Source: an uncultured Eubacteriales bacterium
GTDB lineage: Bacteria; Bacillota; Clostridia; Christensenellales; CAG-917
DNA length: 64,000 nt
NCBI GenBank assembly: GCA_900549225.1
Contig: URNP01000004.1
Span: forward strand, 3,931 to 67,930
Reading direction: 5' to 3'
Part shown: one piece after another, positions 22,892-52,674 of the stretch
Numbering within the stretch: position 1 is the first letter of the stretch
Layout of the letters: the number at the start of each line of letters is the position of its first letter
Program-made: the position numbers and the translations under genes
Notes under the pieces: model-generated
What the model was told of the DNA's origin: nothing
Seen by the model: the letters and a program-made list of their open reading frames with translations, nothing else
The model's database searches: none

Positions 22892-22921
22892 AAAAAGCCT
22901 CGCCGTCGGGCGAGGCTTTTT
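22892..22921. terminator. intrinsic terminator 28 nt downstream of the giant gene
   Basis: GCCTCGCC (22897-22904) pairs with GGCGAGGC (22909-22916) around a GTCG loop, flanked by AAAAA and TTTTT. Confidence 0.8.
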
Positions 22922-25900: not shown

Positions 25901-28900
25901 GTCTTTGTGCAAGAACGTGTCGACGACGATCGAACGGTTCTCGTAATCGGACATGTACATTATGCTTCTGTTGAGAACGGTCACTTTGATTTCGCCAGTT
26001 TCGACGTTTTCATTCTTGCCTGCGTTGTATCTATATCTCACGCCGACGGTGTACTTCTTGCCGAAGTATTGCGAGATATTTGCATAGAAGTCTTCGCCGC
26101 CAAAGTCGTATTCAACGGTGACGAGTTGATCTTGCACGGTCTTGTCGGCACTTGCGCTCTTGACTTTGACGCGTTGAGTGCTTCCTGACGGGAAGAGTGT
26201 GCTGTTGACTCCGTACGGATCAAGCGTGTAATCCTTGCCGCCTACAAGTCCTTCTATGCCTGCGCTTGCGACTTTGACTTTGATCGTAACGTCGCTTGTG
26301 AGTGCGTCGGAGGAGATCGTAAGCGTCATATTGCCGTCAAATCCCGCTGCCGTATAATCGTCGCTCCATGCGAGAGTAACGGGTATCTTCTTGTCGGTCA
26401 CGTTGAGCGTGGTCGACTTGATCAAGCCGCCGTAGAAGTGATCTGCATCGATATCGACGCTGAAGCCGTTCTTGCTGTCGCCGGTGATGCTGTCAAGCGT
26501 GAATTCGTTGTTGATCGTAAACGTGAAGTCCTTCACAACGGTTTCACCGTTTGCCGATTGTCCCGTGACGTACGCTTTGCGTGTGAACGATCCGTTCTTG
26601 ATTTCTTCCGCAGTCGGCATGCTCGTGTCGAGCCAGTGGAGCGGCACGTTGTAATGCGTGGTTTCACCGATCTCGACGGTTGCTGTGGTTGCAAATGTGA
26701 ATTTGTCGAATGCGTCGTATGCCTTGAGCGTTCCGTCCGCATTGCACATTCCGTCGGGTTTCACATCAACGGCTGCGTTGAATCCCGTGACGTAAATTCT
26801 TGCAGTGAATGCGTCTGCGCTCGGATAACGTATTGAGAGCCCGTCGAAGAAGAAATACTTGCGTTCAACGTAATCTCTGCCGTTCAACTCGTCCTTGTTC
26901 GGTGCGGAATAGTCAATCCACTTGACTTCGACTTCGGTTTCGCCCTTGCCTTCGCCCGTGGTGACTTTTGCCGTGCTCGGCAACTTCCACTCGTCAAAGA
27001 CGTTATAGGAGAGTTGAATCGTTTCTTCTCCCACACCTGCAATCTTGCCACCGGTAACGTTGAGTTTGCTCTCGCCGTCGTTGAAGGTGCCGCTTGTAAA
27101 CGTATAGTCGGGCATGTTGATTCTGAACGAAACTTTTTGTCCGCCGATGGTCAAATATGCCGTCTTTTCGACGCCTTCGATGCCCACAGAGGACACTATG
27201 CCGTCAAACGATTGTACGTATGCGATATACGGCTCGCCCTTGTCGAGCGTTACGAGCACAGGCGTGCCGCCGAGTGCGTCGCCCCATTTGCTCGTCTTGA
27301 AGTAATCACTCGGATTCTTTGCGAAATTGATCGGATCGATGCCGTATGCGACTTCGTCGATTGCGTGCGTTTGTTGATATACCGTGCCTTCGTAATTACT
27401 TACATTAGCAAGTGCTTCTTTGAGGATGTCGAGTTTCGCTTGGTCATCCGCATTCGCTCTCACGTACGCCGCAACGTCGCCTATAGCCTCGTTGTAGAAG
27501 AAGTTGACCGACTTGACGGTTTGCTTCTCGACGCTGAGTTTGAGCGTTATCGTTTGTGCGGTGTAGATTGCATTGCCGTCCTCGTCCACTTTGCCGCTGT
27601 TGACAAGCGCGAGTTTCGTACCGTCTTTCGTGCCATCAAGCGTCGTGTAGGCTTCGACTTGTGCGTAAATCGTGCCGCCGTCAAAGATATTCTGCTCTGC
27701 TTTGAGTTTCGTGCAAGCCGCGTTGGTGTAGTACTTCACCGTGCTCCAGTCGGGGAACATAGTATGCGTCGCCGTGCCGAAGGATACCGAGAACGATTGA
27801 TATCTCTCATTCTCGTACCAGGTCGGGTTGAGCGTGTCTTCGTGTTCTACGTTGAGCGCAAGCGTCGTGGGCTTGAGTGCGTTTACTTCAATCGGGACGT
27901 AAATTTCTTGCGTGCCGCTGTAATCCGTGCCGATTGTGAGTTTTGCATAGAGCGGATACGTTCTTTGATTGGTGTATCCCTCGTATGTGATCTCGTCGGA
28001 CGTGAGGTTGTGTACGCCGTTGTCGTATGCGTCGTAGTAGGTTTCGCCCGCTTTGATGAACGGCGCTTCCACTCTGAGTCCGTTGCCGACGGTCAAAGTC
28101 TTTTCAACCTTGTTGCCGCTTGCGTCTTTGACGTTGAGCACAAAGTTGTTGCCAAGAGATGCCACGGTGATCTTGTCGTACGAATACTGGTCGAAGGTGA
28201 TTGCCTTTGACATAGAATCGTAAACGAACGGATTGACGACGATTCTCACGTTGACTTCTTGCGCAAGGCCACCCGTGTAAGTCGTTTTCTGTCCCACAAA
28301 TCCCGAGGTCTCGTCGCCGATGGTCTTCTTGGTGACCGTGGTGGAGATGCTGAATCTGTTTCCGCCGACTTTTGCTTTGACGGTCACGTCAACGCCCTTG
28401 TAATAGTCGTATCCGACGATATCGCCGTTGTCGTTTTTGCGAGCAATTGCATCAAGTGCCTTTTCAAGTTCTGTCAAATCCCACTCGACGTCGTAGCCGT
28501 TCATGTTCTTGCCCGCGACGTTCTTGCTGTTGATAAACTTGAATTGCTTGATATACTCGGCAAGTTTCCACGTGTTTGCATTGATTAACATTGCGTCAAG
28601 GTTGAGAACGGTGGAGTAATTGCCGTTGTTATCACGCGCATTGGTGAATTTCTCTGCAGAAGCCGTATCCGCCTCGCCGGTTGCGTCCGCCTTCATCATT
28701 TGCGTGAGATGTGAGATCTTGTAGTTCTTTGCGCTGAGTTCAATCGAGCCTTTGACAGCCTTGCCCAAGCCCCATTGATAGGTGAATCCGACCTTGACGG
28801 AGTTGCTTGCGGAATCCGTGTTCCAAGAAGTCGAACCTTGCCAATCGTAAGTGAATTCATCCGTGTTCCACTCAATCGTGCCTGCGGGGAATTGCTTGCC

Positions 28901-31900
28901 GGTGGGCAAATTGCTACGGCTGAGAACGTAATACTCAACCTCTTCACCGCTTGCGTTCTTGACTTTGATCGTCTTGTAAACGGTGTTGCCATTTGCGTCT
29001 TGTTCGGTCACAAGGCCTGCTACGTAAGCGGGCATCAAAACGTACTTATTGCCGTCCTTGTTGACGTTTGCCGCTGCGCCCTTGTCAATCTCTTCTTGCG
29101 TGGGTTGCACGAGGATTTGATATCCGTTTTCGGACGGTGCGCCGCTTATCGGATTGATAACCGCGTACGCCATATTTCCGAGGCTATCTTGCAGATATGT
29201 TCCAAACGTTGCCTTGCCTGTCGAGAATGAAATTTGAACAAGATCAGGCAACTCTGCCATAAACTTGCTGCTTTGAGTATCGATATCGATATTCAAATTC
29301 TTGGTGCCGTAAGTTCCGTCTCCGTTTCTATACAAGCCTTTGACGGATTGCACTTCCTTGTCGTTGGTGACGTAAACCGGAATTGCATAGAGCACCGTAT
29401 TGAGTGCGTAGCCGTAGACATAGCCCGCAAGACGTCTGCCGTCTTCGTCCGCCGTTTCGGAATTTGCCGCAGTCAAATCGACCGACGCGCCGTCCCAAAC
29501 GATATATGTACCGGTTGCATCTTGATATTGGCTTCCGGAGTTGTAAGACGTCATCTGTTTTCCGTCAATGATTATCGGGAATGTCACGGTTGCCTTTTGC
29601 GGGAAGAGCGTTTCATCGAGGAAGAAGCTATCTCTGAGCTCAAAGTCTTTTCTTGCACCGCCGGATATAGCGTAGCCTTTTCTTGTTGCAGGATCTTCAA
29701 TGACAATTTCCGTCGGAGGTTCAACGCCGATATTGCCTGCGGATTCGGATTCGTCAAAATACAGCAATCCCGTCTTATAATCGGCGTGATTTATGCTATA
29801 CGGCGTAATGCGAAGCATAAAGAAGTCCCATGCATCCTTGACGTTGCTAGTCTGCTTGGTCGGACGTGTTGCGAAGTTAAAGTCGCCGGTTCCGCTTCCG
29901 ACTTTTTCGTTGTACAACATTTCGGTGCCAATGCCGTTCTTCTTGCCGTTGACCATAATTTCGATAGCCTGAATGCCGGGAGCAACGGTTTCACCGCTAT
30001 TGCAACCATAATCAGATGCTGTCGGATTGATGTCAATGTAGATATTGATTGACGGATTGATCGTACCGCTTGCAAACGGAAGGGGAAGAATGCCGCCGAT
30101 AAGTTTGGTTAAATTCTCCAAAGTATCACCGGCAAGTCTTTGGATAGCACCCCAAATACCATCCATATTGATTGCCGGACCGACAATACATTCCATTGCC
30201 CATTTGAGCAATGCAAACGGTATACTTCTCATATAAGGTTCTACGTAGTCAACCTTTTCTTGTGTGGTTGCGTTCTTTGCCAGTAACGTGTCTAATCCGT
30301 CGAAGAAATCAGTGATCGGCTTTGTAGTAGTGCCATAAGGTTTATCCGATGGAGAAATGTCTGTCGCAGAACCGATATCTTTAACATTGACGAAATACAC
30401 ATTGCTTCCGCTGGATTTGCTATCGGCATTATTGTCTCCGTTGCGCATGAGATTCATAAGGATGCAGCTCACCATAATGATGAGTTCGTTATATGCATCT
30501 TTGTTGAGCTCAACCTTGAGAGAAATCTTTCCTGCACCGTTGGACGCTTTTTTTGCACCTGCAAAGTACGGCCAATATCCGTTGTTGTTGAAGAGATTTA
30601 CGTCAACGCTCTTGATGAGATTTTCAAGATTTGCCGGATATGAATACGATTCCTTCTTCACTGGATCGTTCCAACCACTGCTTGCTTGCGTTGAAGTATC
30701 AGCAGCAGTCTTTGCAGACGGATATTCATATGTTGCATCGTCGCCGTCAGTACCGCTTACGAGTTTAAGCGGGAATGCATCTGCCAGCAGTGTTCCAAGA
30801 TCAAGGCATTTCAAATATGCGCCGATTGCTGGGATGCCCGAAACCAAATCGACAGTATTACCGCCAACTTTTATGTCAGACAAGAATACGTTGTTGCCAC
30901 CGAAAATAACGTTCAATCCTACCGTATCTTTTACTGAAGCACGATTTAACCCAAGTCCAAGCAAAAGTTTGTAGCTCTTGGCAGAAGGATTGCTTGCGTC
31001 TTCAACCAAGTTCGTCGCAGTATAATCTTTCTTACCAGACAAAGTTATAGTTGAATGTTCATAACCCGAATAAATCCTTGGAACACCTACAAAACCTAAC
31101 GATACCCAGCCGGTATAAGCGCTCCAAACGGTATTTTGAATTTCGAGATTAAGACCAGGCTTGAGGTTGTCGATGACGTTTTGAACAAGGGACATCAAGC
31201 CGGACGTCTTGGAGAACGTCAAGCCTGCATAACCAGTCTTCACCGATTCAATGAGTTTTTCGCTGTCAACCTTGCTTTGGCCAAAGCCGAGAGCGAAGTT
31301 CTTGATCGCAACGTTTGCGCCCGTGCCTACGCTGTCGAGTTGTGCGTTGAGGTTGATGGATTCCAAACCGCCTGCGCCGAGGTTGACGTCAAGTTTGACG
31401 GACTTGATGGGCGGAAGCGTTATATCGCCGAGATCGAGGCCGAGCATATCGATAAGCGTTGAGATGAACGCATTGTCGAAAGACATACCGAGACGGCCGT
31501 TTTCGATGTCGATTTGCAAATAGAGAGCCGAACCGCTTGCCGCGGCTTTTGCCTCTGCACTTGCGTCTGCATCGGACGTGGACGCGTCTACGCTTGCGAC
31601 TGCGTCTGAAGCGGTGCTTGCGCCGTAACTAGGAGTTGCGCCGAGCAAACCTGCGATGCCTTGGAACTTGATCTTGCCAAGACCCAAACCGCTTGCATCG
31701 ATATAAAGTGCGTCGGAATAGATCTCATCCTTCGTATAGGAGTCGTAACTACCCGTGGTGAGTTCCCAACCCGAACCACTCGTCTTCTTCATAAGTCTTG
31801 AAGAGCCGAGGTAGTATACGCTGAGGATCGTGGAGTTGATCGGGTCGCCTGCCTTGATATCGACTGCGATGTCGCTGAACAGGATACCGCCGATGCCGTA

Positions 31901-34900
31901 TGCAAGGATAGGTGCGATATTGATATTTGCCGCAATATCGATGGTGAGGTTGATAGCCTCGCTTGCCATGGTGATATTGACGTCTGCAAGAGTGTACTTG
32001 TAGTAAGTCGTTGAGGAATCATAAGACGTGCCCGTGAACACTTCGTATGCGCCTTCCGAATTCTTGACGTACACTTTGCCGTCATGCACTTTGCCATCAC
32101 TATCTTTGAGCGTATTTGCGTCAACGAACGTCAATTCGGAGAACTTGCCGAATATGGCTTGTCCGCCGAGGAGATTTGCGAGCAGATCTTGCACCCAACC
32201 TGCCAACGATTCTCTGTAGCCGTCTTGTCCGGGCTTGAGATTCTTTGACGTCATCGTGAGATCGAGCGTCAAAGTAAGTCCGATTGTGGGCAGATTGAGG
32301 TCGGAAATATTGAACGTTCCCGTGCCGTTGACGAGTGCTTCGAGGTCAAGCGAGAGAATCTTGATATAACTTGACGGATTCACTTCAAAGCGACTCAAAA
32401 TAGATTGAGAAATGTCTTTCGTGATGCTTGCCGCCGGGATATCGAGGCAGAAATACAAGCCGTCGCTCAATCTGATATTAAGGCTGAACTCGGTCTTGCC
32501 ACCCGTTGCGTCCATTCTGAAGAGAATGTCGCCGATATCGGGAAGCAGATCCTTGGTGGAATCGAGACCGCGGATCGCCATAATCTTTCTGTAGATCGCG
32601 TTGATGAGATCCGAGTTGAGTTGGAGCAAGAGTTTTTGCGGCGTGACGTTGATCATGAAGTACGCATAGTCCTTCATCGTGTCTTTGATCGTGTCGATGT
32701 CGCCGCTGTTTGCGGTTTGCGCCTGCATGGATTCTGCTCCGTTCGATTCGTTCAAGAACTTGCCGAGAACACCCTCGAGCAATCCGTCGAGGTTGATATC
32801 TGTCACTGCGACTTTTGCAGTGTTGCCGAGGATTCCGCTGAGGTCAACGTAAATCGCGTTATCGACGAGGTAGATGCCCAAAAGCGTTCTGTCGGCAGTC
32901 GCACCTTTGCTGTGCTTGTTGAGTTCGATGCCGAGATCTACCTTGAATTTTTCAACGTCGATATTTGCAACGAGATCAAGTGTGAGATAAGCACCTGTAT
33001 TGTTGCCGAGTTCGTTGACAATGTTGAGTTTGAGCGTAGAGCCGCTGACCGCGCTGTTGGGATTGATGAGTCCCATCACAAGGTCGAGGATTTCGCTCAA
33101 ATCGATTTCGTTTGCAGAGCCTTCCTTCGGAGCGCTACCGTACAACGAAATGTCAATTGACAATTCGAGATGCGCTTTTGCGTTCTTCAGACCGACGTAC
33201 TTGTCGTACGATACTTGTTTTTCATAACGCGTACCTTTGTCGTCGGCAGTTGCAAGACGATAATTTTCACCGTCTTTGACGTATGCGCCGTTTTCGGACT
33301 CAACGTAGGTTATGTCTGCAAATTTCTCGTCTTTGTCTACGGAGAAGTCTTTGTTGACTCTTGCATAGATCTTGCCAAGAGAAATTGCGATTGCGAAATC
33401 GCCTTGTTTGAGGTATGCGCCCTTCGTTCCCGTTGCGGTGTGTTTGACAAACTCACCGTTTTCGTAATCGTAGGTGTCGCCGCTCCATGCGGGATATGCG
33501 TAAGCAACGAGAGCGTAATCGTCCGTGGAGACGAGAACGTACGTATTGTCATCGTCAGCACCCGTGCCTTGCGTGTATTCGCCGTTTGCATCTTTAACAA
33601 ACGTCTTACCGCTCCAATTGCTGCCATTGAAGTACTTGCCGCTTGCGCCGTACATTGCGTTGAAGTTTGCAACGGTTTCGTAATAGAGCATGCCGACCTT
33701 GAATCCGAGGTTGATATCGATACTAGGCGAGTTGCCGTAGAAGTTGATCGTGATACCGCTCGTATCCTTTGTGTCGGTGGTGCGGAGTTTGGGCAGGAAT
33801 TCTCCGATGCCTTGGAGAATCTCGCTATCGCTGCCTGCAAGCATACCGATGAGGTCTGCAATGAGGGTTTCGTTGAGACCGACGGTGATAAAGTCGTTTG
33901 CGATGAGCAATCTGCCGAGCACGACGTTGAGGATGCTCCAAACGTTTGCGGGAATCAGGCCCGTATTGGCTTCTTCGTCGTCCGCCGCCGTAAACGCTTG
34001 TGCGGACGCGCTCGTTGCGCTCGTGCCGAGAATGCTTGACAAATCAAGACCTTTCACTACTCCGTAAGAGAAGAAGTCGCCCCAGCCGACGATATCGCCG
34101 ATTTGACTTGCGTCAATGTTGAGATAGAGTTTGCCGTCTTTGATTTCGACCCACAACAACGCCTTGGGCTTTTGCTCGCCGTGGAAGTTGGTTTCGTAGG
34201 TCAATTCAAGGTAAATCTTTGCGCCTTCGAGAACTTGGAGAATTCCTACGCTCGTGTCGCCCGAAATCATCTTGACGAGATTTGCGGTTTGGAGATAAGC
34301 CTTGAGGTCGAGATTGAGACCGATGAGGCTTTGGAATTCCGCGTTGTTTTTCAAAGACGTTGCGATGAAGTAGAGATATTCGCAAATGGTCTTGTCGTCG
34401 ATGAACTTTGTGAATTGATACGTCCAGTTGATGACGTCGTCGAGAGTCGTTCTGATGTCGAAATTCAATCCGAGTTCAACAGTGTTGAGCTCTGCAAGGA
34501 CGCTTGCCACGTCAAACGCACCGCCGCCGAGCAAATCGCCGAGGTTGAGCGCAAGTGCTTTGGTGTAGTTGGTGAAGTCGGTGACTTGCTTGTACACTTT
34601 GACGTTTGCGTGTGCTGCCTTAAATGCGTCCGCTTCGTCCATATCGGTGTAACCGTTGCCGTTGGGGTCGATGCGATAATACTTTTGTCCGTTATAAACG
34701 ACTTCCTTGCCTGCGCCCTTTTCGTTTGCGTTTTCACTCGGATAATCGCTTGCAAGGACGTATTGCAAGTTGCCGTCGCCCGTGAAGCCTTGGAGTTCGT
34801 CCTTGTTGACTCTGACGAAGTTGCCGTTGTTGTCAACCGTGTAGAGCGTGCCCGTGAACGATCTGAATTGATTGTTGCTTACGAGTTCTCTGTACTCTCT

Positions 34901-37900
34901 GTACTTTTCACCGAGGTGGTTGTTGCCCGCAATGTCGTTAAGGCGTTCGTAAACGAGCATATAGATGCCGTCAACGTCGGTGTACAAATCGCCTTTATAT
35001 GCGGTTTGTCTTGACGTGAGAACTTCGCTCATAACGGGCGCTGCCTTCATATATCTGTCTTCAGGACCTGCAACCGTGCCGTCTTTGCTTGCATAAATAG
35101 CATATTCGCCGCCAACTTTGGCAGTTGCGGTATACCCGTCATCGGATTTCACAAGCGTATAGCCGCTTGCTTTCTTGTAGAGTTTGCCTTCGTAAGTATC
35201 TTTCTCGCTGTCGGCAAGTTCCTCATACTTATTATCTTTTTTCTTGTAGATTGTGCCTTCGTAAGTATCCTTCTCCGAATCGGAAAGCTCCTCATACGTT
35301 ACACCCTTATAATAATATTCGTTGCCTACCTTGTCTTTGAAGAGTTTGACGTAGTCTTTTGCGTTGTAGTTCTTGCCGTAGTAGTTGCTGTAATCGGTGT
35401 TGCCGTTGTCGCGATAGAAGTTTGCATAGTAGAAGATAGCGTTCGAGCCTTGTTGCATGTTGAGGATATCTTCTTTTCTGCCGAACTCGATGGACGAGGA
35501 CTCACCCGCCACGCCGTTCAGACCTTGAATGTTGAGTCCGAGATTGAGCACGGGGATATCGCCTCTCTCGTTGAAGAGGATTGCGCCGATCGTAATGTCG
35601 TACGGATTGAGATTTTGTTTAAGGTAAACCTTGAGGTTGGGCAACATACTCGTGATGCTCGCGCTGTCTGCAATAAGTTCGTTGAGCAGAACTTTTGCAA
35701 AGCCCGACGTGACGTTGAGCGCGATTGCATTGGTGAATATGTTGATGAACAAGCTTGCCGCATCGGGATCCTGCTTGTCGGGATTCTTGTCAGTGACCGA
35801 GTCGGACGCAACTGCCGCGTCGGCTGCGTTGTTTGAACCGATATTGGCAACGAGTCCCGTGAGCACGTCCTCAAGAGAGTACTCGCTCATATCCACGAAG
35901 AGTTTTGCGTCTTTGCCGAGCAACGCTTCTGCGTCAACGTACAGACCCGCTTTGCCCGTGTCTTGATCGTTGTCGTAGTAGATGCCGAGAATGTGCGGCT
36001 TTGTGCCGTCAAGGAGTTTGCCATCGTATTTGTTGGCGTCTCTGTCTTCGCTCGTGACATAGTTGCCGTCGGCCATCAAATCGTTCTGCTCGCCCCAAAC
36101 GTCGATTGCAACGTCGAGATCGCGGATATCGATGCCGAAGGACGGGAGAATGTAGAGTTTGAAGCCGAGGTTCAAGCGGAGCGAGAAGTAGATGTTGAAG
36201 GTCATATCCTCTGCGATCTGGAACTTGCCCTTCATTGCGCCGAGGATGCTACCCAAAACGTCGCCGAGCGCTTCGTTCACGCCGCTGTACTTCTCGTCGA
36301 GTTCACCGTTGACCAAAACGAACAAGCCGTTGTTTTCGTTGAGTTTTGCCAAATCGTCCTTTTCGGTGACTTTGACGTAGTCGCCTTGGAACTTCTTGTA
36401 GGCAATGCCTTTGTTCTTGATAAACTCAAACGTGGGCTCAACTTTTCTTATGCTCTTGTACACTTCTGCGTAATCCTTATACGGGAGGTAAATCTTTCCT
36501 GCTTGGAGGAACAGACTGCCTCTCAACGCGAGAGAAATGTAGTAGAGATTGTCGGAATCAACGTACTCTTTGTATGCGTAATCTGCATATTCGGTTTTTG
36601 AGAAATCGGGTTTTTCAACCGAACTGTTTTGTTGAACCTTGATGAAGTAATCGGAGTCTTCGACTTTGTCGTCTGCGGAAAGAAGGACTTTCTTTTCGGT
36701 GTTGTACACTTCTTTCTTGTAGATGAACACTCTTTGAATACGGACGTACGCACTCGTTGCGTCAACGTAGTATTCCTTTGCGCTGTCTTTTTCCATCTCG
36801 CCGATGAAGTCGGGCATAGAAGTCCAATCTGCCGCGGCTTTTTGATACTTGCCGTCGCCGTCCTTGACGAACAAAGTGTCGGGATTGATTTCGATATACT
36901 TGTCTTTGTATTCGTAGAAGCGCGGGCCGTCTTTGTACTTGGTCGTGCTGAACTCGTCGTTCTCGTAATAATCGAACTTCCAGTTGCCAATGCCGTCCGT
37001 CACTTTGTCAACGCTGGTGTAAATCACCTCTTCGGTGTTGATATAACGTGCGCCGTCTGCGATATTTTCAAAACTAAGTTTGTTTTTCGCTTCTTCGCCC
37101 GTGACGTATTGGAACTTCGTAACGTTGATTTTAGGTGCGTTGATTGCAACCGACAACTTGTGATTCCACAAATAGAGGTTGACCGAGAGGAATTCGTTGC
37201 GCGCTTGAAGCGGTTGGACGACACTGTATCGGAAGTTGACCGCTACGGGCTCTTCTGCCTTTTCGGACGCATAGTAGTAGAGTTTCGGAACTCTGACCAA
37301 ATAGTCGTTTTGAAGGTCCGCAACCTTTTCGCACTTGTTAAGTTGCGTTTGTGTCGCGTCTGCATAGAGAACATAAACTCCTTCTGCAAGTTTGATGTAA
37401 ACGTTGACTTTCTTTACGTCATAGTAACTTGCTCTGCCATTTTGGACTTGTTCGTCGTATGCTTTGCGCTCGGTTTCTGCCATTTCTGACTTCTGCACGA
37501 ATGCGCCGTCTGCCGCCTTGTAGTAGATACCCTTGTTTTGTGCGCCTTCACCCGTGTACCCGGTGACGTCGTACAAATATTTGGACTTGGTGAGAGTCTT
37601 TTCAAGATTCTTGACAAGTTCTTTCTTTGCCGATTCGGTGGTCGCCTTGCCGTATTCTCTCTTGAATTCGTCCACGATATCTTGTGCGCTCGTGTACGAA
37701 TATCTGGTGTTGTCGGTGTAAAGCGTGACATTGGGTTGATTGACGAACTTACTGTCGTCGAATTGGATCGCGTTCTCGCCCATTACGAGTGAGAGAATGC
37801 TGTTGATATAGTCTGCTTTTGCAAGAACTTTGATATATCTCGACGTGATTTGCAAGCCGTATGCAAACGTTCTGATATATCCGAGTATCTTGTCGTCTTT

Positions 37901-40900
37901 GACAAGCGGGAATGAAATCTTTTCTTTCTCGCCGTCATCGGGGGTATCGTCGCCCGTCGTATCGTCTGCCGTCGCCATTGCGTCGGTTGAATTGGGTTTG
38001 AACAAGCCGCTCACGAGTTTGCGGATTTCGTTTGCGTCGACACGCAGAGACGGAATGTTGAAATAACTCAAGTCAACGAACAAACCGCCGTTTTCGCGTT
38101 TATATCTGCCCTTTTCGTTCTTGTAGCAGTAACTTGAATCGTAGGAATATCTCGTGCCCGAGTATTCGCTCGATCTGATATAGTTGTACTTGCCGCTTTC
38201 GAGAGAGTAACTGCCGTTCTTCGTTTCGAAGTAATGGTCGTATCTCTCGCTCGGGTCAACGTAGTTCTCGTTGTTTTCGTCAAGTTCGCCCTTCGATTCA
38301 TCAAGAAGCGTGAACGTGCCGCCCACCATGTAAATGCCGAGCATATCATGGTAATCGGAATCGTTTCCGCCCTTGGTTTGCAATCTGACGCTGAGGTTGA
38401 CGTAACTTGCAATATCCGCAATGAGATTGACCAATTGTGTCTTGTCGATGTTTTCGATGACTTTCTTGAGCAAATCGATGACGGTGAACAAATCCATATC
38501 GCCGTCAAACTGATCGTCATCGCCTGCATACTTGACGAGTTCGGTACGCATGAAGTTGAGAAGCGCCGCAACTTGAATGTCTGCATCGACCACGAGTTGC
38601 AACGAACGGTCGATATCGCCGCCCTTGTCCGATTGCGCCTTGATGACGAGGAGTTGATCGTCTGTAAGGCTCGGGAAGAAGGCTTGAAGCACTGCGCTCA
38701 AATCGATCTCGTTGTCTTTGCCACTCTTGAATTGCGCCGTAATGTCAATGGTTTCGCTGAGGGTGAATCTGTCAACGTCGTCCATATTGGTGTATTCTGC
38801 AAGTTCGTCGCCGCTGAGGACGTATGTGCGAGAATTGGTGAACGCAACGTCGAGATTCTTGATTGCAAGACTGAGTTTGAGCGTGGTGTCGTACTTGCCG
38901 CCGTCGCTGACGTACGATTTGTTTGCAACTGCGCCTGCAACGTGCTTGTAAACGGCTTCGCCTTCGAGCATCGAAAGTTTCGTCGTATCGTATACTTCAC
39001 TGCCATCGCCTTTGCCGTTGTCAACGACTTTCAACAAGTAGAGTCGATTGGTGCTCTCATCGCAGTTGACGATATATTTGTCATAACGATTGTCAGCAGC
39101 CTTAATTTCACTGCTGTCGTCGGGCTTGATTGCACGCACGAAGTTGCTGCCTGCGCTCTCTTTTACGTAATTGCCCGTTCCCGTTTCAGATTTTCTGAAA
39201 ACGTAGTACTTGCTCGTTCCGTTCTTAACCTTTTCGGCAAGGGTTGCTTCGGTGCTTTCGGTGTAGTCGGAATCTTTGTTGTATCTGTCGCCGTCAAGAC
39301 CGAGCGCAACGTCAACGGAGAGGTTGATGCTGTCGGACGTGTCGAGTTCGACTTGCAAGCCGCCGTTGATTTCTTGATAGAACAAGTCTTTGATGTCGAA
39401 TCCGAGCAATTCTTCGGGGATATACTCGAGAATGGTGTCAAAGAGTTTGTCGCCGAGTTTCAACGTGAGCAAGTCTTTGTTGATGAGCATCGAAAAAGCA
39501 AGTTCTTTGTCGCTGAGGCTGATGTCGCTTCCGTTTGCGTCTGCGGCAACGGACGCCTCGTCGGTGGACGCGTCTTTTGCTCTGTTGCCTGCAACGAAGA
39601 GTTCTTCGTCGTCAAAGTCAATGATGTAATCTTTGAGGATTTCGGCAATATTCAAACCGCCGATTGCGACCTTTTGAATATTGAACGCTTCCTCGAGATT
39701 GAGGTAAATGGTGTTGTTGACGTAGTACGCGCCGAGCCACAAACTCTCGTAACCCGTTTCGGTGACGTTGATGAGTTCGATCTTGAGTTCGGACTTGGTG
39801 AGGTCGTAAATGTCGACCATAAGCGATACGTCAAGTCTGAAGTGCGCGGAAGAATATCCCTTCGTCGTCGAAGGCATTTCGACAACGACGCCCGTGAGGT
39901 CGCCCACGATCTTGCTCAAAATCTTGCCGAAATCGAGCGTGCCTTCGGTGATACCCAGTTCGAGTTCCACGGAGAAGCCCACCGTGATGATGGTGTCGTA
40001 GAACATGTTGGTCGGGATATCGTCATAGGCTTCTTTGTCTGCTTCGGTGAGTTCGTCGGTGTACTCGATATCCTTGCCGTCGACAATTCTCGAATGCGCT
40101 TTTCCGTCGCGGATATATGCGGGGAGCAAGTTGTTGCCCGCGCCTACGCCGAGTTCGATGCCGCCGAGTTTGAGTCCCATATTGACGCAACCGATTGCAA
40201 CGTCAAGTCCGAGATAGAAGTCGCTTATCGAAGAGTAAAGATTGACCGTGCGATACCAATCGCCGTTCACGTCCTTAACGTAACCGAACAAACGAGATCT
40301 CAACTCTTCGATATCTCTTTCTTCGCCGTTATAGCGGACGTAGGTGTCGCCTGCGATATAGGTATCCGTGACGCTTTCCGTGCCGTTTGCGTCCTTTCTG
40401 TACATTCTGTAACTGCGCAAACTGATAGGACCGTCGATTCCTGCGACTTTTGCGTAGTAGTTGGCGTTGGAGTGGATATATTTTCCTTCAACGACTTTGG
40501 TTATAACCGTGTAAGTGCCGTTGAGATAGACGCCGAACGTCTTGCCTTCGGGAAGTTTGCCGTCCGCGTATCTCGTCTTGAGCGCGCCCTCAGTCGGTTT
40601 TACCGTTCCGCTTTCTCCGTCAACGGTGACCTCGCAAACGTCTGTGGTTGCCGCCTGGTAATATTTGCCGCCTGCGACGTAATATGCGTCGGTTTTAACG
40701 ACTTGACTGAGGTCTTCTGTGCCGTAATATTTGTATCTGTGTTGTTTGTACTCGTCGTCAGTCGTAAACTTTTTGTACAAGTCTTGGTCATCGAGATTAT
40801 CGGAGTTTTGGAGGTCTGCAAGGCTCTTGTAAACGGGTTGACCGATATCCACGCCGAGAGAAACGTTGAACACGTCAAACACTTCCTCGAGAGAACCGAG

Positions 40901-43900
40901 GTCGGGCATGAACGTTGCAAGCACGAATGCAATCAACGCTTTGGTGATTTGGATTTGGAATTGAGCGTCGCTGTACGCAAGCAAAACTACTGCGTCGCGA
41001 GTTGCGCTGCGGAGATCTTGCTCGTCGCTTGCAGTTTGAGCACCGTTATTCTCTTTGTCGCCGCCTTTCGAGCCGAACTTGTCAATAACTTTCTTTGCAA
41101 AGTCAACGAAGTTTTCAATCTTGGAGTAGTTCTCTGCCGTACCGACCACACCGGTGAGGTCGAGATAGAACGTACCGCCGCTCAGATACATACCGCCGAG
41201 CACCTTGTCGTTGCCGTCCTTCGTTCCTTTTGCCGTGTCGTATTTTGCAAAGTAGCCTTCACTGTCGACTTCGACGAATTGAATTGCGAGTTCGACCTTG
41301 CTCAAATCGCTGTTGCCGATAAAGTCGCCAAACGAGCCGCCCGAAGCAAGTCCTTGCAAATCGAGAGCCGCAAGATCTATGTTTGCGGATATTCTCAAAC
41401 CGATGCCTGCGTTGAATGCGGACAAGGTTTGCAAGTTGATGATCATATCGCGGAACGCATTGGGAAGCAAGCCGCCTGCGTTGACGACTTCCGCACTTGC
41501 GGAATTGAAGTAAATCAAACCGCTTACGCTCAACGAAATGTTTTGATCCTGATAGGTTTCCTGACCGCACTTCTTGTAGAGTTTCGCCTCTTTTGCAAGT
41601 GCGTTGCGAGTGGTGACGTTGCCGTCCGCATCCGTTTCGGTGACGGTCATCGCTTCGAGCACTCTCTTGTAGAAGACGGTGCTTTGCGGAGCGTTTGCGT
41701 CGTTGCGGTTGACGTAGATATCATTTTGAGCGTCGTAAACGTACACTGCGTCGTCATCTTCGGATTGAACGTAATTGACGTAGTATGCGTATTGTTTGCC
41801 GTCCTCTGCACTCGTCTGAACGGTTGCGTAGGAGCGTGCGTACATAGTGACGCCGGTGAGGTCTTCTTTGCTGTAGCGTTTCGTGCCTTCTTCGAGCACT
41901 TCGCCTTCGCCGATGAGTCTGTACTCGCCCGTCGCTTCGTCAAAGACGAATGCGCCGTTTGCGTCAACGTTGAAGTTGGGCTTGCGATACATACCCGTCT
42001 TGAGCAGGTATTCGCCGCCTTCGCTTTCGTTGAACGCGTAGTAAATGCCGTTGTCGACGAGTTCGGTTTCTCTCTGATAATTCTCGCCTCTGAATCCTCC
42101 GATGAGAGCAAGAATGTTGGCTATATAGTCGTCCAAAGAGATGAATTCGAGTCTTTCGTCGTTGTCGAGAAGGGTCTGATAATCGTTGACGCTTTCAAGA
42201 CCGACTTTTGCATCTACGCCGAGTTTTAAGTCAAACGTGAACGGTCTTGTGTTGCCGTCTTCGTCTTTGATCGGGTCTTTCTTGTTGGCAAGAGCAAGTT
42301 TGAGTTGCAACGCAAGCGCATTGTCGAGATAGCCCTTGAACAATTCGGCGGTTTGCGGATAGAGGAAGATTCCGCTTTGCGCTTCGTCAATGACGGCATT
42401 CTCGGAGTTCACTTCTTGCTTGAACAGCATCGATAACAAGTCGTTGATGAAGTTTGCGCGCAAGAATACGCCGAGAGATTCTATCTTGTTGATATTGCTG
42501 TCTGCTTTCCACGGCGCTGCGCTGAGCACGAGCTTGGAAACGATCGTATTCAACAGTTGCGCAACGTCAAGACCCTTGTCTTGCGTGTCGCCCGTTGTTG
42601 TATCGTCCGCAGTAGACGCGTCAGAACTGCTAGCGAGGTCGACACCGAGTCTGCCGAGCAATTCGAAGAGTCCGACTTGTACACGCGGACCGCCGATGCC
42701 GGCCAGATCAACGTATACGTCACCGTTGAGCAAATAAATGTTGAGATAAGCGTTGCTCTGTTCGTGCTCGTAATCGAAGTCTATGCCGATGCTTGCTTCG
42801 AGGCCTTTGAGAATTGTGTTGACGTCAAGATTTCCGAAATCGATCTTGGTAATGTCCTCCATGCCCATCGCTTGCAAGTTGAGTCTTGCTTTGACGTCGA
42901 GTTTGAAGCCGTCGTCCATCTTGTCGGAGAGCATAAGGTTGAGTCCCAAACGCTTGAGCAAATCGCCGACGCTGAACTTGTCCTTGATGATTTCCGCTTT
43001 GAATTCTTCGTTGTCGGTGTTGATGCGGATTTGCGGAAGCATCGTATTGAGAATGCTCTGCAAGCCGTCCATTCCGAGAACGAGATTGAGCAATTCGTCG
43101 AATGCGAAACCGTCACGGATATAACTTCCGTTGTCGTCTTGCACGAATCTGCCGTCGTAGTTGAGAGAATATCTGTCTTGCGGAGAGAAGGATTCGAGAG
43201 CCTTCTTGTCCGTGACGAGAACGTACGTCGCGCTTGCATAGTAGTCTACGATAAGACTGAGGTCAAGAGCGATAATATGCGCTTCTTGAAGTCCTTTATA
43301 GTAACTTCTGTATGCGCCGTCGTCCGCTTTGACGTATTTTCCCGTGGCGTCAAGTCTGTATCTGTCGCCCTTGTAGGTGTCTTTTTCGGTTTCTGTAAGT
43401 TCGACGAACTTGTCGATACCTTTGCGAGCCTTGTTCTTTATCGTGCCGTATGCGCCGTCTTCGTTTTTGCCGGTTGCGACGTCGATATTGCCGATATTCA
43501 CGCCGAGTGCGATGAGTTTGCTGTCAACGTTGATATCGAGAGAAATTGACGGATCGAGTTGCAAATCAACGCCGACTTGAATGTCAAGGTCGAGTTTTTC
43601 GAGATTTTCGTCAACCTTTAGATCACTTTCGCCTTTTGAAGTGAGTGCGGCAATGAGGCCTACGAGCACGTTTTGCATAACGAGTGCACTGAGTTTGCCG
43701 TCCGCAATGTTGAGAACGACTTGCATTTGCTCCTCTGCCGAGAGCGTGCTCTCATCGGATGCCGTAGAAGCCTCCGAATTGTTGATTTGCGACTTGATAT
43801 CGCCGAGAAGTTTGACGATTGCGTCGCAAACGACTTCGCTGATATTGGTTTTCTCGAGATAGAAGGGTTCGCGTCCGAGGTCGCCTAAGTCGAAATAGAC

Positions 43901-46900
43901 ATTTTGGCCTTCGATGTAAACCGCTATTATATTTTTAATTACAGTATCATTGTCATTTAATGAAATCTCAAGAACAATATTGGTGTCGTTGGGCTCGTTG
44001 AGCGCAAGGTTTGCGCCGAGGCTGATACGGACGTCGTATTCGATATCGTCGTACATATCAAGTCCGAGTTCGATTCCGAGATCTTTAATGAACAAATCGA
44101 GATAGTTTTCAATGCGGATTTGCTCTTTTTGGCCTTTGATCTTGAGATCGAGTCCGAGATCGAGGTTGAGCGACAACGTGTCGAGGTTTTCGACCGTCGT
44201 GTAAATAGTCGAGTCGAAATCTTCGGGAAGAACTCCGCCCTCTTTGCCGAGAGCAAGGTTGATTTCGCTTATTTCAAGACCGATATAAACGGGAGAAATC
44301 TCTGCGTTGAGTCGGATATTGTAATCGTTCTTCCACGCCAAAGCAAGATAACTTCTGTCCGAATTGAGTTTGATGAATTTCTCGGGGTCGACTTGCTTGC
44401 CTGCAAGCATTTGAACGAGCGTGACGATTAAACCTTCCGCAAAGTTGATTTGCAAACCATCGGAGCCTACGCCGATATAACCGATGATGCCGCCGAGCAC
44501 AGAACCGAGGATGCCCATAATGTCGATTCCGCCACTCTCTTCGTCTGCCATCGTGGTTGCTCCTGCTTCGGAAGAGTTGCCGCCGCCGATCAAACCGCCG
44601 AGCAATGCGCCGAGGTCAATGTTTGAAAGCGCGACGTGGAAGTCGTTGCTCAAATCGAGATAAACCGTGCTTACCGCATTGCCTTGAGCGTTTTCGCCCG
44701 TGCTTTGCAAGCGGAGAGCAAGGATAACGTGTTCGATCTTGTCCTGATTGGTCATTGCGTCGATATCGACAATGCTTCTGTTGTAAATTTCGATTGCGAT
44801 ATCGCTGTGGGACGCTATATACGCAATATCGAGCAAACTTGCCTTGGTGAAGACTCTGTCGTTTGCAAATTGATTTGCGTTTTCGTCCGTGATATTGACT
44901 TTGACGTATGCGTCGTCAACGAGAACGTAGCCCTCTCCTCTGTATGCGAGGTCGGTGACTTCGTTCAAAGCGATTCCGCCGGTGACGTATTGTTTGAGAT
45001 AAACGTCGCCCGCATACTTCTTGTCGCTCGTCAAATCACGCTCTTCGTCGGTAAGGAGAGTGTATTTCGTGCCGTCGAGTTTGTAAACTTCGACGAATCT
45101 TGCAAGATTTGCAAGTTCGGAGTTTGCATACTTCTTGAACACCGCGTTTTGCGTGAGATCGACGGGAACGTCGGGATTGAGGTTCGCGTTGAGTGCGATA
45201 CGGAATCCGATTTCCGCACCCGCCTCGACGGGAACGCTGTAGGTGAGAAGAAGTTGTCTGATGAAGGAATTGAGTTGAGGATTGCTCTCGTCAAGGAAGG
45301 ACGCTATCCATTCGCCGACCGTCCAGGACGTGTTGCCTTGGTGTGCGCCGACACTGAACGTGCCCTTGATCTCTGCATAAATACTGGGGATCGTGATATC
45401 GCCGTAGTCGTTGAAGAGCGGAATGCTTTCATACACGTCTTCGTCTTCACTTGTGATGTATTGAGCCATCGTCTGCGCCGCTTCGCCGTCACGCACGATC
45501 TTGATAGGCTCAATTGCACTGCCGCCGATGGTAAGTTCGAGCGGATTGAGCGTTGCTCCGTCTGCACTCTTGACCGTCGTGCCGATATAGATTTCCGCAC
45601 CTGCGAGCTTTTGACCTTCGTCGGTATTGATATCAACGCCGACTCTTACGGGTTTGTTGTCGAATTTGTCTTTGACGTTTGCCCAAGCAATTTGCGCCCA
45701 AGCCGTGATATCGCTTGCGTCGATGCCGATGATCTGATACACGATATCCGTCAAGCCTTTTGCAATCTGCAACTTGACGTTGTCGGAAGAAAGCGTTGCG
45801 ATGATGTCAAGCGCAAGCGCTCTTCTAGCATCGGTATCGTCCACGCCCGTTGCCGACGCAATCAACGCCTCTGCCGTTGCCGTGCCGTTGACGGAAACGG
45901 TGGTGTCTTTGACGAGCAACGAGAGAATGACCTCGTAGAGATCGATTTCGGTTTGAATCTTGCCGAGTCCGAAGTTGCTTGCGTCAAGATAGAGTACGCC
46001 GGAGGTATAGTAAATTCCGAGCAAGACTTTGCGGTCTTGTCCGAATTTCTTGCCCGTGAGTTCGACGAGCAACTCGCTGTGATTGTTTTTGGTGTTGATT
46101 TGCGTCTCTTTGAAGAGCAAATACTTCAAAATCGGAGAAAGATCGAGTTGTCCCGCAACACGCAACTCGTAATTGATGTCCATTTCGGAGTCGAATGCGA
46201 GAGTCGCTTTGGTTATATTCTCTTCTTTAAAGTTTCCGTTTGAATCTTTATAATAGAGCACGCCCGTATACGTTGAAGGAACGGGTGTCTTTTCGATTTC
46301 GATATATTCACCGTTTTCGTTAAGCCAATATTTGCCTTCTCCGAACACGAGTTCTCTCGAACCTTGGTCTGCGGTGAATTCGATGCCGAGCGTAAGATCG
46401 AGTCCTACGAACGGATATTCCAAAATCTCGGTGAAACTATCCTTTTGAAGTTTGTCGTTTTCAAGATAATCGGTCGTTTTGTCGTTCAAACCTGCGGACA
46501 AACCGTTGAGCGACAAATCAAGGCTGACGTTGTTGCCCAAAGAAAGGAAGATGCCGAGTTGGAAATCTGGCAAATAGAGACCGTCGTTGAGCGCAATGCG
46601 AATTCCGCCGTCAAAATCGGTGCTTGCAAAACCGATCTTAACGTTGTTTTGCACTTCGCGATAGTCGTTGTAGAAGTCGTTGTGATAGTACTCTTTTCCG
46701 CCGAACGCTTTGTACGGGGTGAGAGTTGCGGTCTTTACGTATTTGCCGGTTGCGATATTGAACCAATATTCGCCGTTGGCAGCCGCATTGTACTCGCCGC
46801 TGCTGCTGTCGTAAGAATAATACTTACCGCTCTTTTCGTAATTCTCAGATGCGGCTTGCGTGCTCTTTGCAACGTATTGATTGGTTGCGATATCGAACCA

Positions 46901-49900
46901 ATACTCGCCGTTGTCGGCCGCTTCAACCAAATAATACTTGCCGCTCAACGCATAGTTGGCGGGTGCGGCTTGCGTGTTCTTTGCGACGTATTGTTTCGTT
47001 GCAACATCATACCAATGCGTGCCGTTTTCTTCGGTGGCTTCGGTATAAGTGTTGTCTGACTCATTAAACGTGTAGAATTTGCCGCTCAATGCATAGTTGG
47101 CAGGTGCACTTTGTGCGCTCTTTGCTATATACTTGCCCGTTGCGACGTCAAACCAGTGCGTACCGTTTGCCGCAGTGGAGAACGTGTAGAATTTGCCTGA
47201 TTTCAGATAGAATTCATCGGTATTTCTGCTCGTATCGGCAAAGGAAACGTACTCGCCGTTCAAGTCGAGCCAATAGGTTTGGTCATAACTGAGACCGAGG
47301 ATGTTGAGAACTTTGTCGAAAAGTCCCGCTGCAAGCACGACCTCGAAAGCGTGGTTGCCGAGCTTGAAGCCGTCGATTATGCCTGCCACGAAGCCGAGAA
47401 TCGAATTGACGTTAAGGCCGTCCTTGGGAGTCGTTTCGTCTGCAACTGCCGCTTCTTGAGCGTCGTTTTGAGAACCGTCGCCGTCAAGTCCGAGCATACC
47501 GATCAGTTCTTTGACGTCGATTTTGATTTCTTTGACGTTGATGCAGAGCAAATCTGCCTTCAAATATGCCCAACCGTCTTGCAAGTAGATTGCCAAAAGC
47601 GGATTGTTGCCTTCGACGTCCGATCTTCTTGTGATTGCAATCTTCGCAGAAGATTTGAGGAGTATGTCGAGAATCGCGCTCGTGTCAAGACCGCCCGTAA
47701 GGTCGAGGTCTGCGTTGACGTCGAGTTTAAGTCCGCCCTCGATATTGTCAAGTTCGAGCAATACGTTGACGAGAACGCCCTTGAACAAGTTGCCGAGTTC
47801 CTGATCGGGAAGATCGATGGAAATTTCAGCAAGTTTGCCTTTGAGCGTGTCGATATCGATCGAAAGTCCCGTCGAGAGATTGACGTGGAGCAAATCCGTG
47901 TTGAGTGCGCCGTTCTTGAGAATGGGCAGATATGCGCCGGGATTGTCCGCAAGGTCTTGTTCAAGGTCGGTGAAATTCTTTTCAAATTGACCTTGATTGG
48001 TGATTTTACCGAAGGTAACGTCGATGCTGAGTCCAAGTCCGATCAACGGATCGAGCGTGAAGTCGGTGTGCGTTTCGTTGTATTCGCGGATACCGAGCGT
48101 TGCGTCCAACTTGATTGATTTCTCTTGTTGTGCGCCCTTGTTCGTATAGGTGAGACTTGCTTCGGAAATGGGGATATCTGCGCCGATATTATTGCCTGTG
48201 AACACCATTCCGAATATCGTTTCGAGCAAATCTCTAGTGAGATCGAATTGGATACCGTTGATATTGAATATGTTTTCGTCCATATCAACATTGATATGGT
48301 CGAGTATCGTGCTTACGAGTGCCAACACGTCAACGCTTCCGTCGCCGTCGGCAGATTCAAACGCACCGTGTTGAACGATAAGTTCGCCGTTGTCGACGAG
48401 CGCTTGTTGGATAGCTTGCGCTTTCATGCCGTCGGCAAAGTAATCGCGCGCCGCTTGAGAAGTCGCGTCGCCCTTGAGTCCGTCGATAGCGCCCTTGATC
48501 TTGTCGAAAAGTTGACCGATGAGATCGTCGAGCAATTGATTGACGTTGATATCGTCAATCTTGAACTTCGTTCCGTTAGAGCCGAGCAAACCGCTTGCGT
48601 CGATATAAATGCCGTTCAGACTGCCCTTGTAAAGCGCACTGAGGCGTTCTCTGTTGTCTCTGCCGAGAACTCTGACCGCAAGTTTGGTATCTTCGGGGTT
48701 TCTTGTGTTGATTTCACCTTGGAGAGTGATTGTGAGTTGAACCGTTCCGCTTGCAAAGTCGATTTCTTTTGCAAACAACGGCTGAAGCGCCGCAAGCAAT
48801 TCGGCGTCGAGATTTTGTTTGAGGAGATTTGAAATGAGAGTGCCGAAAGAATCCACCACGTTGTCGATGGACACTTTCTTTTGTGCAAAGTCGAGTGAGA
48901 GAGTTATTGCGCCGTCAAGCGTAAGGAAAGAGTATTGTTGCGCAGTTTCAATTGCTTCGAGCAAAGTCTTGCCGTCGGATCCGGTACGATTTGCAAGAAT
49001 ATCCTTGACGTCGAGATCGGGAGTGCCTGCGAATTCGGCTTTCGCATAGCCCAAATCGATACCGAATTCGGATTGGAACGTGCCGTACTTTTCTTGGATG
49101 TCGGGAATTCCGCTCGAATTGAGGTTTACGTCAATGCTGAAATTGGTTTCTTTGAGCGATCCGTTGTAAATGTCTGCTTCCAGATAAAGCGCAACGCCCG
49201 CCAAAGCACCGATTTTGCCCAGATCGAGTCCGAGCACGTCTTTGACGAGTCCGATAATGTTTTCGGGGATAAGACCTTGAACGAACGGAATGAGCGTCAC
49301 GATAAGTCCGAGATCGCAAGGTATACGCAAAACCTGACGGCCGTTGCCGTAGTCCACGAGCGTGCTCTTGCTTGATCCGAACAGTATGTTGACGAGCAAT
49401 TCTTCAACCGTCAAATGGGCTATGTCGATTTTGATCAGACTGTTGACGAGTCCGCCGATATCGTAACCCATAATGGTGTCGTAAAGGATTGAGGAAAGAT
49501 CGAGTTGTTCGAGAGCGTCGGAAAATCTAGCCACGAAAGTGCTCATGTTGATGGTGTCCGTGTATACGACGTGGACGCCGTCGCCTTTCTTGATTCCGCG
49601 CATATCGGCAACGAGTTTGCCGTTATAGTAGTATGCACCGAAGAGCATCGTGCCTTTTCCGTCTTTCGCCATATCCGTGATGGTCTGACGATCGAGAGTA
49701 CGACCTGCGATTTGGTCTTTTCCCAACTTCCAGAACTCAACGAGGATTTGACTGTTGTCGTCGTTCACTCTGTCAATCTTGCCTGCAAAGCGAGCAACGA
49801 TAAGCGATTCGTAGGAATCCTTGGCAAATCCGAGCACGAAAGCCGTGTCGACGTTTATGTACTGCTTGTCCTTTTCGGCACCCGCTTCCAAAAGCGCTGC

Positions 49901-50095: not shown

Positions 50096-50159
50096 AATCT
50101 CCTCCGAAACATACGCCTCTACGCGTGTAGCGCATATGTGTAGATTATTATACAGTCCA

Positions 50160-50188
50160 ATTATACGTTTTTTTTCGCTGTTTGTCAA
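50160..50188 (-). promoter_or_regulatory. consensus sigma-A promoter of the giant gene
   Basis: Minus strand reads TTGACA (50188..50183), a 17-nt spacer, then TATAAT (50165..50160). The 5' UTR is ~58 nt. The RBS GGAGGAG lies at 50105..50099. Confidence 0.75.
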
Positions 50189-52663: not shown

Positions 52664-52674
52664 AATTCACCTTC

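Follow-up and report, generated by a model that had tools for sequence, protein, structure and literature searches.

The window analysed here, a stretch of 64,000 nucleotides (nt) from an uncultured Eubacteriales bacterium (assembly GCA_900549225.1, contig URNP01000004.1, positions 3,931 to 67,930), carries on its minus strand a giant monocistronic gene of ~27 kb, whose ~1 MDa product is a predicted lipoprotein made of an array of 15 homologous units and a long C-terminal region of a different kind. We infer, with a probability of roughly 0.55, that this protein is a surface stalk, segmented and anchored by lipid, with a binding region at its far end. An earlier note, made from the DNA letters alone, had reported about 14 ancient modules in the translation, recognized by a recurring short signature, and had pictured the protein as a fibre of beta-rich domains joined by flexible acidic linkers.

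The features that delimit the gene and its N-terminal signal are given below; amino acid (aa) positions here and throughout count from the listed start of the open reading frame (ORF), a TTG at 50188, unless stated otherwise.

22949..50188, minus strand: giant ORF, 9,079 codons as listed, ~9,048 aa from the ATG at 50095
50160..50188, minus strand: sigma-70 promoter of the giant gene, TTGACA, 17 nt, TATAAT, with 12/12 consensus matches
50021..50106, minus strand: ribosome-binding site, ATG and lipoprotein signal peptide MRMRKLSLVLLLVLIITMIFGMVAC; the lipobox Cys is ORF aa 56
22892..22921, minus strand: intrinsic terminator, 13-bp stem with 7 GC pairs and a T-run, 28 nt past the stop codon

The listed TTG, which NCBI also uses in its 9,079-aa call, coincides with the -35 box of the promoter, and a GGAGG ribosome-binding site is found 6 nt upstream of the ATG at 50095; for these reasons the ATG is almost certainly the true start. 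The N-terminus reads MRMRKLSLVLLLVLIITMIFGMVAC, followed by D, and its lipobox, MRMRKLSLVLLLVLIITMIFG-MVA-C, conforms to the lipoprotein signal pattern ([LVI..][ASTVI][GAS]-C preceded by a positive n-region and a hydrophobic h-region), with a Met at position -3 that is atypical but tolerated. By its signal peptide, the protein is a predicted substrate of Lgt/LspA lipidation; lgt and lspA were not among the genes of the 64-kb window. In composition the protein is acidic and low in Cys.

The true repeat is a ~250-aa alpha+beta unit that runs from one acidic linker to the next. The landmarks described in the earlier note are real, and what had to be redrawn is the boundary, since the natural unit does not run from signature to signature: the "restart motif", conserved in the family hidden Markov model (HMM) at positions 117-152, is the N-terminus of the unit, and the LLGIYY-x-G-xLYVDLSGLG hairpin lies near its C-terminus. 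Each unit opens with the restart hairpin and a helix and closes with the signature hairpin, a strand, a helix and an acidic segment of 15-30 aa. A conserved core of ~150 aa spans the linker (two strands, signature hairpin, strand, helix, linker, restart hairpin and helix), and it is this core that is listed for each module below.

30662..49891, minus strand: array of 15 alpha+beta units plus insertions, aa ~100-6509, each unit ending in a predicted-disordered acidic linker
49517..49792, minus strand: module core 1, aa 133-224, 28.4 bits, independent E-value (i-E) 9e-11; partial, without the linker and restart part
48188..48742, minus strand: module core 2, aa 483-667, 65.9 bits
47288..47734, minus strand: module core 3, aa 819-967, 55.6 bits
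45704..46186, minus strand: module core 4, aa 1335-1495, 84.6 bits
44399..44833, minus strand: module core 5, aa 1786-1930, 47.2 bits
43640..44044, minus strand: module core 6, aa 2049-2183, at the end of the shortest complete unit (aa 1900-2150)
42425..42910, minus strand: module core 7, aa 2427-2588, 60.8 bits
40880..41407, minus strand: module core 8, aa 2928-3103, 80.6 bits
39398..39841, minus strand: module core 9, aa 3450-3597, 71.2 bits
37775..38437, minus strand: module core 10, aa 3918-4138, 23.3 bits; ~70-aa Tyr-rich insertion inside the signature hairpin
35648..36184, minus strand: module core 11, aa 4669-4847, 62.8 bits
33818..34324, minus strand: module core 12, aa 5289-5457, 49.8 bits
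32582..32986, minus strand: module core 13, aa 5735-5869, 75.4 bits
31418..31954, minus strand: module core 14, aa 6079-6257, the best conserved across species (YYLGSSRL ... GLGLGKIKFQG)
30683..31528, minus strand: degenerate 15th unit, aa 6221-6502, unit HMM E 4e-12; terminal linker at aa 6488-6509

A jackhmmer search started from the shortest linker-to-linker segment (aa 1900-2150; 251 aa) retrieved 848 family instances, 548 of them covering >80% of the query length, and the unit matches cover the window protein from aa ~100 to 6502 with hardly any gaps. Module length reaches ~780 aa; as had been proposed, the long modules are the common unit plus insertions, often Tyr/Gly-rich, which are kept among orthologues and not among paralogues and are thus lineage-conserved. 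In the family HMM, conservation is strongest at Y47, Y54, D56, G61, L3, D18 and I149. The degenerate 15th unit, which has a signature-like stretch (AIGAYLKCLDLGTLL) at about aa 6454, was absent from the earlier list, so that the original count of about 14 is borne out by the 14 copies recovered with the HMM and rises to 15 with this unit.

A linker had been reported to follow 13 of the 14 signatures within ~25-60 aa. With a strict composition filter it was found in 11 copies, and weaker linkers are present at copies 2 and 4, which matches the reported 13; the distance does not hold for copies 10 and 14, in which the linker lies >60 aa past the signature because an insertion sits within the signature hairpin. 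The linker columns of the HMM carry 0.1-0.5 bits, with a faint S-S-E-A-x-T-A-A-D bias (positions 91-100, each <=0.6 bits). This bias is seen family-wide, with linkers such as aa 2517-2541, 4064-4092 and 6198-6222 as examples; it is too weak for a motif, and the segments might be glycosylation or processing sites.

Several comparisons showed that the modules are homologous. All of the amino acid and nucleotide positions given earlier for the 14 signatures map exactly to the DNA, and the quoted peptides are present. Self-BLAST of 300-aa chunks yielded significant module-to-module matches (aa 2349-2546 against 746-931, E 9e-10; aa 6036-6174 against 1284-1412, E 4.5e-6; aa 5777-5839 against 525-589, E 6.7e-6), which is the self-similarity that the modular proposal predicted. 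An HMM seeded on 10 copies from the window protein detected 3 non-seed copies, and the family-wide HMM detected all 14, including the first at aa 133-226. When the training set consisted of relatives <45% identical, exactly the same 14 copies were recovered, with scores of 23-85 bits and i-E values from 3.5e-9 to 4.5e-28; as a control, 50 block-shuffled (locally shuffled) versions of the protein scored <=4.3 bits with the same model.

The copies have diverged to about 20% identity. No inter-module DNA identity was found and Tandem Repeats Finder gave nothing relevant, supporting the view that the modules reflect old duplication rather than an assembly artefact. The sole recent internal duplications in the gene are two small local ones: a tandem ~86-aa repeat within the insertion of module 3 (46737-47168, aa ~971-1133; protein E 2.6e-15, DNA identity 64%) and a 58-bp pair at 35171-35297 (84% identity).

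Structure predictions were obtained with AlphaFold2 for two parts of the array. Model 1, for three modules (aa 5284-6300) with a 23-row orthologue alignment, had a predicted local distance difference test (pLDDT) score of 61.5 and a predicted template modelling (pTM) score of 0.41, and displayed hairpin-rich beta structure in a strand meander, helices and disordered linkers. Model 2, for two short consecutive units (aa 296-925), was based on 37 orthologous and paralogous unit pairs whose register was checked; it had a pLDDT of 76.5 and a pTM of 0.57, with 196 residues at pLDDT >=90, and each unit comprised about 9-10 antiparallel strands, several of 13-17 residues, and about 5 helices. DSSP assignments for both models gave antiparallel hairpins, strands of 6-17 residues and about 5 helices per ~250-aa unit. 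As a stand-in for structural superposition, the DSSP strings of four units, taken from the two predictions and alignments, were projected on the unit HMM; they displayed the same element order and 55-70% three-state agreement. The linkers were predicted to be flexible, as proposed, with pLDDT <50 in two independent AlphaFold runs; in model 2 both the inter-unit segment and the acidic linker fell below this value. Of the beads-on-a-string picture, the homologous units and the disordered acidic linkers remain, and the description of the beads changes, as they are alpha+beta and not simply beta-rich.

Searches for relatives of the unit were negative. A Foldseek search of the PDB with model 2 gave nothing significant (best E 0.03, probability <=0.33, template modelling score (TM) <=0.26), the matches being a mixture of hot-dog dehydratases, CD1/MHC platforms, PsbO, porins and LolB (probability 0.33, TM 0.24); with model 1, TbpB was returned at TM ~0.1. 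The BFVD viral fold search produced no match, no PDB chain was matched by the module profile in a sequence search, and neither Pfam nor NCBIfam had anything in the module region (aa 1-6000) of the window protein. The module is an undescribed domain, for which Pfam, PDB and BFVD contain nothing similar in sequence or structure.

The array does not extend to the end of the protein, whose last ~2,570 aa form a different, non-module region.

22952..30661, minus strand: C-terminal non-module region, aa 6510-9079, ~2,570 aa, beta-rich
24179..24346, minus strand: Big_4 (PF07532) immunoglobulin (Ig)-like domain, aa 8615-8670, 23.3 bits against a gathering cut-off of 22.1

The module HMMs found no copy within aa 6510-9079, and a PDB sequence search with the region found no relative. 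A V-x-W-[DS] motif recurs in it about 12 times, and the closer family members have C-termini that align with it collinearly. The Big_4 match falls to 21.7 bits when scanned as a short piece, and a second one is weak (10 bits), so that just one domain passes, marginally.

To define the family, the profile of 13 cores was run by exhaustive HMMER against 1.84 billion cluster representatives, of which 156 matched at E <=1e-3 and 26 at E <=1e-30. In these 156 representatives the module cores number about 730 and the whole-unit matches about 850, and many members are 5.6-7.9 thousand amino acids (kaa) long with 12-16 matched stretches. The family was visible only to this exhaustive scan and not to word-indexed searches, which yielded 3 proteins with a 1,301-aa piece, 2 with the 13-core profile and 7 with a 55-row orthologue profile. 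No Pfam or NCBIfam domains were found in remote family members, and the source names, where given, read "hypothetical protein [Clostridia bacterium]".

A lipobox was present in 29 of the 35 Met-initiated members of >3,000 aa. The module count of 19 full-length lipoproteins was nearly constant (14 modules in 14 of them, 15 in three and 13 in two), despite a module region that varied from about 3.6 to 5.8 kaa, and the first module started at aa ~87-109 in all but one. Orthologues are collinear module by module, each module position being orthologously conserved. The window protein fits this pattern, with its lipobox, an early first module (first core at ORF aa 133, or aa 102 counted from the ATG), 14 collinear cores plus the degenerate 15th, and a variable C-terminus.

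The last-module motif GLGKIKFQ, searched for in 185,579 species genomes, led to 56 loci in 56 species genomes, which by our reading are all uncultured gut Clostridia, "Christensenella sp." or Christensenellales-type metagenome-assembled genomes (MAGs); the few named otherwise (uncultured Bacteroides/Bacteroidaceae, Butyrivibrio crossotus) are presumably mislabelled bins. The hosts included humans (Hadza among them), mouse, rabbit and buffalo, and one locus was located on a complete 1.647-Mb chromosome; in a genome of ~1.65 Mb the giant gene accounts for about 1.6%. One of the 56 loci covers only 607 bp; the other 55 are full-length, and in 53 of them the frame was open across the whole 4.2 kb. 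As judged from these sequences, the family is restricted to gut Clostridia.

An origin of the gene in mis-assembly, gene fusion or a non-coding ORF is hardly credible, even with the gene broken into several ORFs in some related Logan contigs. The window matches a MAG from the human gut (GCA_902476315.1, contig CABSCX010000005.1), in which NCBI calls the same gene with the same length of 9,079 aa, and portions of the locus were assembled independently in further human-gut metagenomes. Collinear orthologues of 5.6-7.9 kaa exist across many species, the open frame in 53 of 55 species loci points the same way, the gene has no DNA repeats able to mislead an assembler, and its start and stop signals are clean. 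In one of the Logan contigs (ERR4565262, here L002) the orthologous giant gene appears as consecutive ORFs of 588, 490, 1183, 2047 and 1249+ aa, which reflects either assembly frameshift errors or a decaying copy.

If the protein is a segmented stalk, its 15 units would fold independently outside the cell and, with flexible acidic joints between them, would extend to a length on the order of 100 nm or more, a rough figure taken from domain counts. The stalk would span the wall and hold the C-terminal Ig-like region outside it, where that region would bind a host, dietary or partner-cell ligand. The lipobox anchor, the 15-unit array, the disordered linkers and a C-terminus with Big_4 and V-x-W-D elements that is kept in closer relatives all support this arrangement, and the constant number of the units, which are not interchangeable, suggests that selection acts on length or position-specific contacts rather than repeat-number variation. 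Other points weigh against it. The binding activity proposed for the C-terminal region is putative, and one domain alone passes the Pfam threshold there, marginally. The length of this region ranges from 926 to 3,712 aa in the family, and a variation so great makes a single conserved ligand unlikely. The unit fold has no known relative, so that the stalk is argued from architecture alone, and the pTM of 0.57 for two modelled units does not show that they are independent beads; the chain may be a flexible string or a semi-rigid rod. The monoderm envelope is an assumption from taxonomy, and the conserved module count could equally be compatible with a scaffold or ruler role.

Such a role is the main rival. 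The protein might be an envelope scaffold or molecular ruler, that is, a lipoprotein placed within or along the envelope (in the wall zone or an S-layer-like layer) instead of a projecting adhesin, in which the 14-15 position-specific units might set a length or organize partners, while cations or wall polymers might attach to the acidic linkers. We consider this possible, if on balance unlikely: it suits the invariant count (14 modules in 14 of 19 members, which differ greatly in length) about as well as the segmented stalk does, and it agrees with the orthologous conservation of every module position, the location of the gene among housekeeping genes, and its retention in small genomes at about 1.6% of ~1.65 Mb; however, Pfam scans of the giant protein found no SLH, CWB or LysM wall-binding domain, a C-terminal Ig-like array is typical of exposed binding regions, and the partners are hypothetical. 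A polyprotein, whose acidic linkers would be processing sites at which a precursor is cut into about 15 proteins, is improbable. The linkers are regular and share the weak S-S-E-A-x-T-A-A-D bias, but their columns are nearly without information, the only nearby protease gene is an HtrA-like one about 20 kb away, and the lipid anchor would be retained by the first unit only.

Two further readings involve lipids. In one of them each unit would be a LolA/LprG-like half-barrel, its helices covering a hydrophobic cavity, and the array would bind, store or relay lipids or lipoglycans outward. It drew on model 1, for which Foldseek returned Staphylococcus aureus Csa1B/SAOUHSC_02783 at probability 0.98-0.99 and Mycobacterium tuberculosis LprG at about 0.85, and it is in line with LolB being among the top matches of model 2, with strands that alternate hydrophobic and polar residues, and with the giant protein being itself a lipoprotein. 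Those model 1 matches, however, had TM <=0.33, where a structural match would call for >0.5, and a root-mean-square deviation of 15-18 A on a model of pLDDT 61, and the Csa1B and LprG matches were not reproduced with the model of pLDDT 76; no sequence match to a PDB chain or to a Pfam lipid-binding family was found, and the amphipathic helices probably just cap the hydrophobic face of the sheet. This lead, which came from the low-confidence model and was absent with the better one, was demoted accordingly to a minor rival that we regard as doubtful. More doubtful still is its specific form, in which the fixed array of 14-15 units, with a hydrophobic ligand in every half-barrel, would be a membrane-anchored relay of defined length, taking lipids or lipoglycans from the cytoplasmic membrane outward; if true, such a relay would amount to a modular version of bridge-like lipid transport in a monoderm, with a fold that the PDB does not yet contain.

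The other reading, the alternative raised in the earlier note, is a continuous beta-groove or beta-solenoid of the bridge-like lipid-transfer type (AsmA/TamB/VPS13). The great length, the many amphipathic beta-strands, the N-terminal membrane anchor and the strand meander of model 1 would suit it, but every unit has about 5 helices, disordered acidic segments lie between units, the host is presumably monoderm, aa 1-6000 gave no Pfam match of AsmA, TamB, DUF490, DUF3971, RBG or Chorein type, and no such protein was among the top Foldseek PDB matches of either model; this alternative is accordingly disfavoured as very improbable. A beta-solenoid or beta-helix fibre, built of short parallel coils of ~18-30 aa without helices, was likewise ruled against by the antiparallel hairpins and the about 5 helices per unit.

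The neighbours of the giant gene are chromosomal housekeeping genes (metG-tatD-ksgA, thrS and guaB), together with the gene for the HtrA-like protease, and Pfam and NCBIfam had nothing in most neighbour proteins. One gene is divergent from the giant gene.

50600..51655, plus strand: membrane acyltransferase (HGSNAT_cat / Acyl_transf_3, OatA-like)

An acyltransferase gene is upstream of the giant gene in four genomes (the window, and loci L001 3424-4398, L002 81-1013 and L059 39-938); as an association only, the giant protein, or the wall it passes through, could be a substrate of the enzyme. Farther upstream, the segments 52088-54645 and 56175-56816 (minus strand) encode two membrane proteins, a bPH_2 protein of 191 aa and another of 213 aa, together with an unannotated protein of 656 aa. 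This trio is syntenic with the giant gene at L001 81-3369, where the giant protein is 40% identical; the window differs in having a phosphoglycerate mutase gene (54684-55970, plus strand) inside the group. Directly downstream of the giant gene, the 20469-22674 segment (minus strand) encodes two zinc-ribbon proteins, one of them an SPFH/Band-7 protein whose C-terminus carries double zinc ribbons, the other 356 aa long. A secreted, Asn/Ser/Tyr-rich protein of 1,219 aa with a signal peptide is encoded at 56863-60522 (minus strand); its C-terminus has repeated, GLUG-repeat-like GG-x-VG-x-N motifs and no Pfam or NCBIfam match. It lies in a stretch (~56000-62000) with 40-42% GC, compared with ~49% elsewhere, which may be an acquired island. 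No Rfam family reached its gathering score in the whole 64 kb, despite the presence of metG (16754-18769) and thrS (4698-6464); aminoacyl-tRNA synthetase genes carry T-box leaders in many Firmicutes.

The closest known systems are of three kinds. With the giant fibrillar adhesins of Gram-positive bacteria (S. aureus Ebh, the SasG/Aap "periscope" proteins and Big-domain proteins), the window protein shares the megadalton scale, the logic of an anchor, a repetitive stalk and a distal binding part, Ig-like (Big_4) domains, low Cys and an acidic composition; it differs in its anchor, an N-terminal lipobox and not an LPXTG motif or a C-terminal transmembrane segment, and in its repeat, a ~250-aa alpha+beta unit and not an Ig, FIVAR-GA or E-G5 repeat. 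Periscope proteins have near-identical repeats in variable number, whereas the repeats here are ancient (about 20% identity), position-specific and fixed at about 14; a periscope or other length-variable adhesin was rejected on finding no inter-module DNA identity and 14 modules in 14 of 19 full-length relatives. LolA, LolB, LprG, LppX and the S. aureus Csa/Lpl proteins (DUF576) share the lipoprotein nature and, by prediction, a curved antiparallel sheet with helices on one face, but they are single domains of ~200 aa as opposed to a 15-unit array, with no sequence similarity and TM <=0.33. The bridge-like lipid-transfer proteins (TamB/YhdP; VPS13/ATG2) share great length, an N-terminal anchor and repeated amphipathic beta elements with loops, and are set apart by the helix-rich units and disordered acidic linkers found here and by the lack of any HMM or fold match.

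Giant genes derived from metagenomes have been reported from Omnitrophota and gut Clostridia, some of the latter from mammalian guts (West-Roberts et al., bioRxiv 10.1101/2023.11.21.568195). The Clostridia giants in that work are built from RCC1, Listeria-Bacteroides repeat, YG repeats, dockerin and leucine-rich repeats (LRR), none of which is found in the giant-lipoprotein family; the term "lipoprotein" is absent from it, and its passages on Clostridia describe no comparable family. A search of the literature on giant proteins and lipoproteins of Christensenellales, Borkfalkia and CAG-74 found no description of this family. Giant repetitive surface proteins are an already known kind; what sets this one apart are the N-terminal lipid anchor, the large repeat unit with its unmatched fold, the fixed, ancient and position-specific repeats, and the confinement to a single clade.

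Christensenellales-type bacteria, nearly all of them uncultured, belong to the heritable and health-associated part of the human gut community. The family adds a large domain family with no Pfam entry or structural relative, in which about 14 copies have been maintained even though their identity has fallen to about 20%, a combination that is unusual among surface proteins. In practical terms, it offers a clade marker and a candidate surface antigen or adhesin. The gene takes up about 1.6% of the genome and has stayed intact in no fewer than 56 species, whose hosts are humans, mice, rabbits and ruminants; given this cost and this retention, it is probably central to how these cells meet their surroundings.

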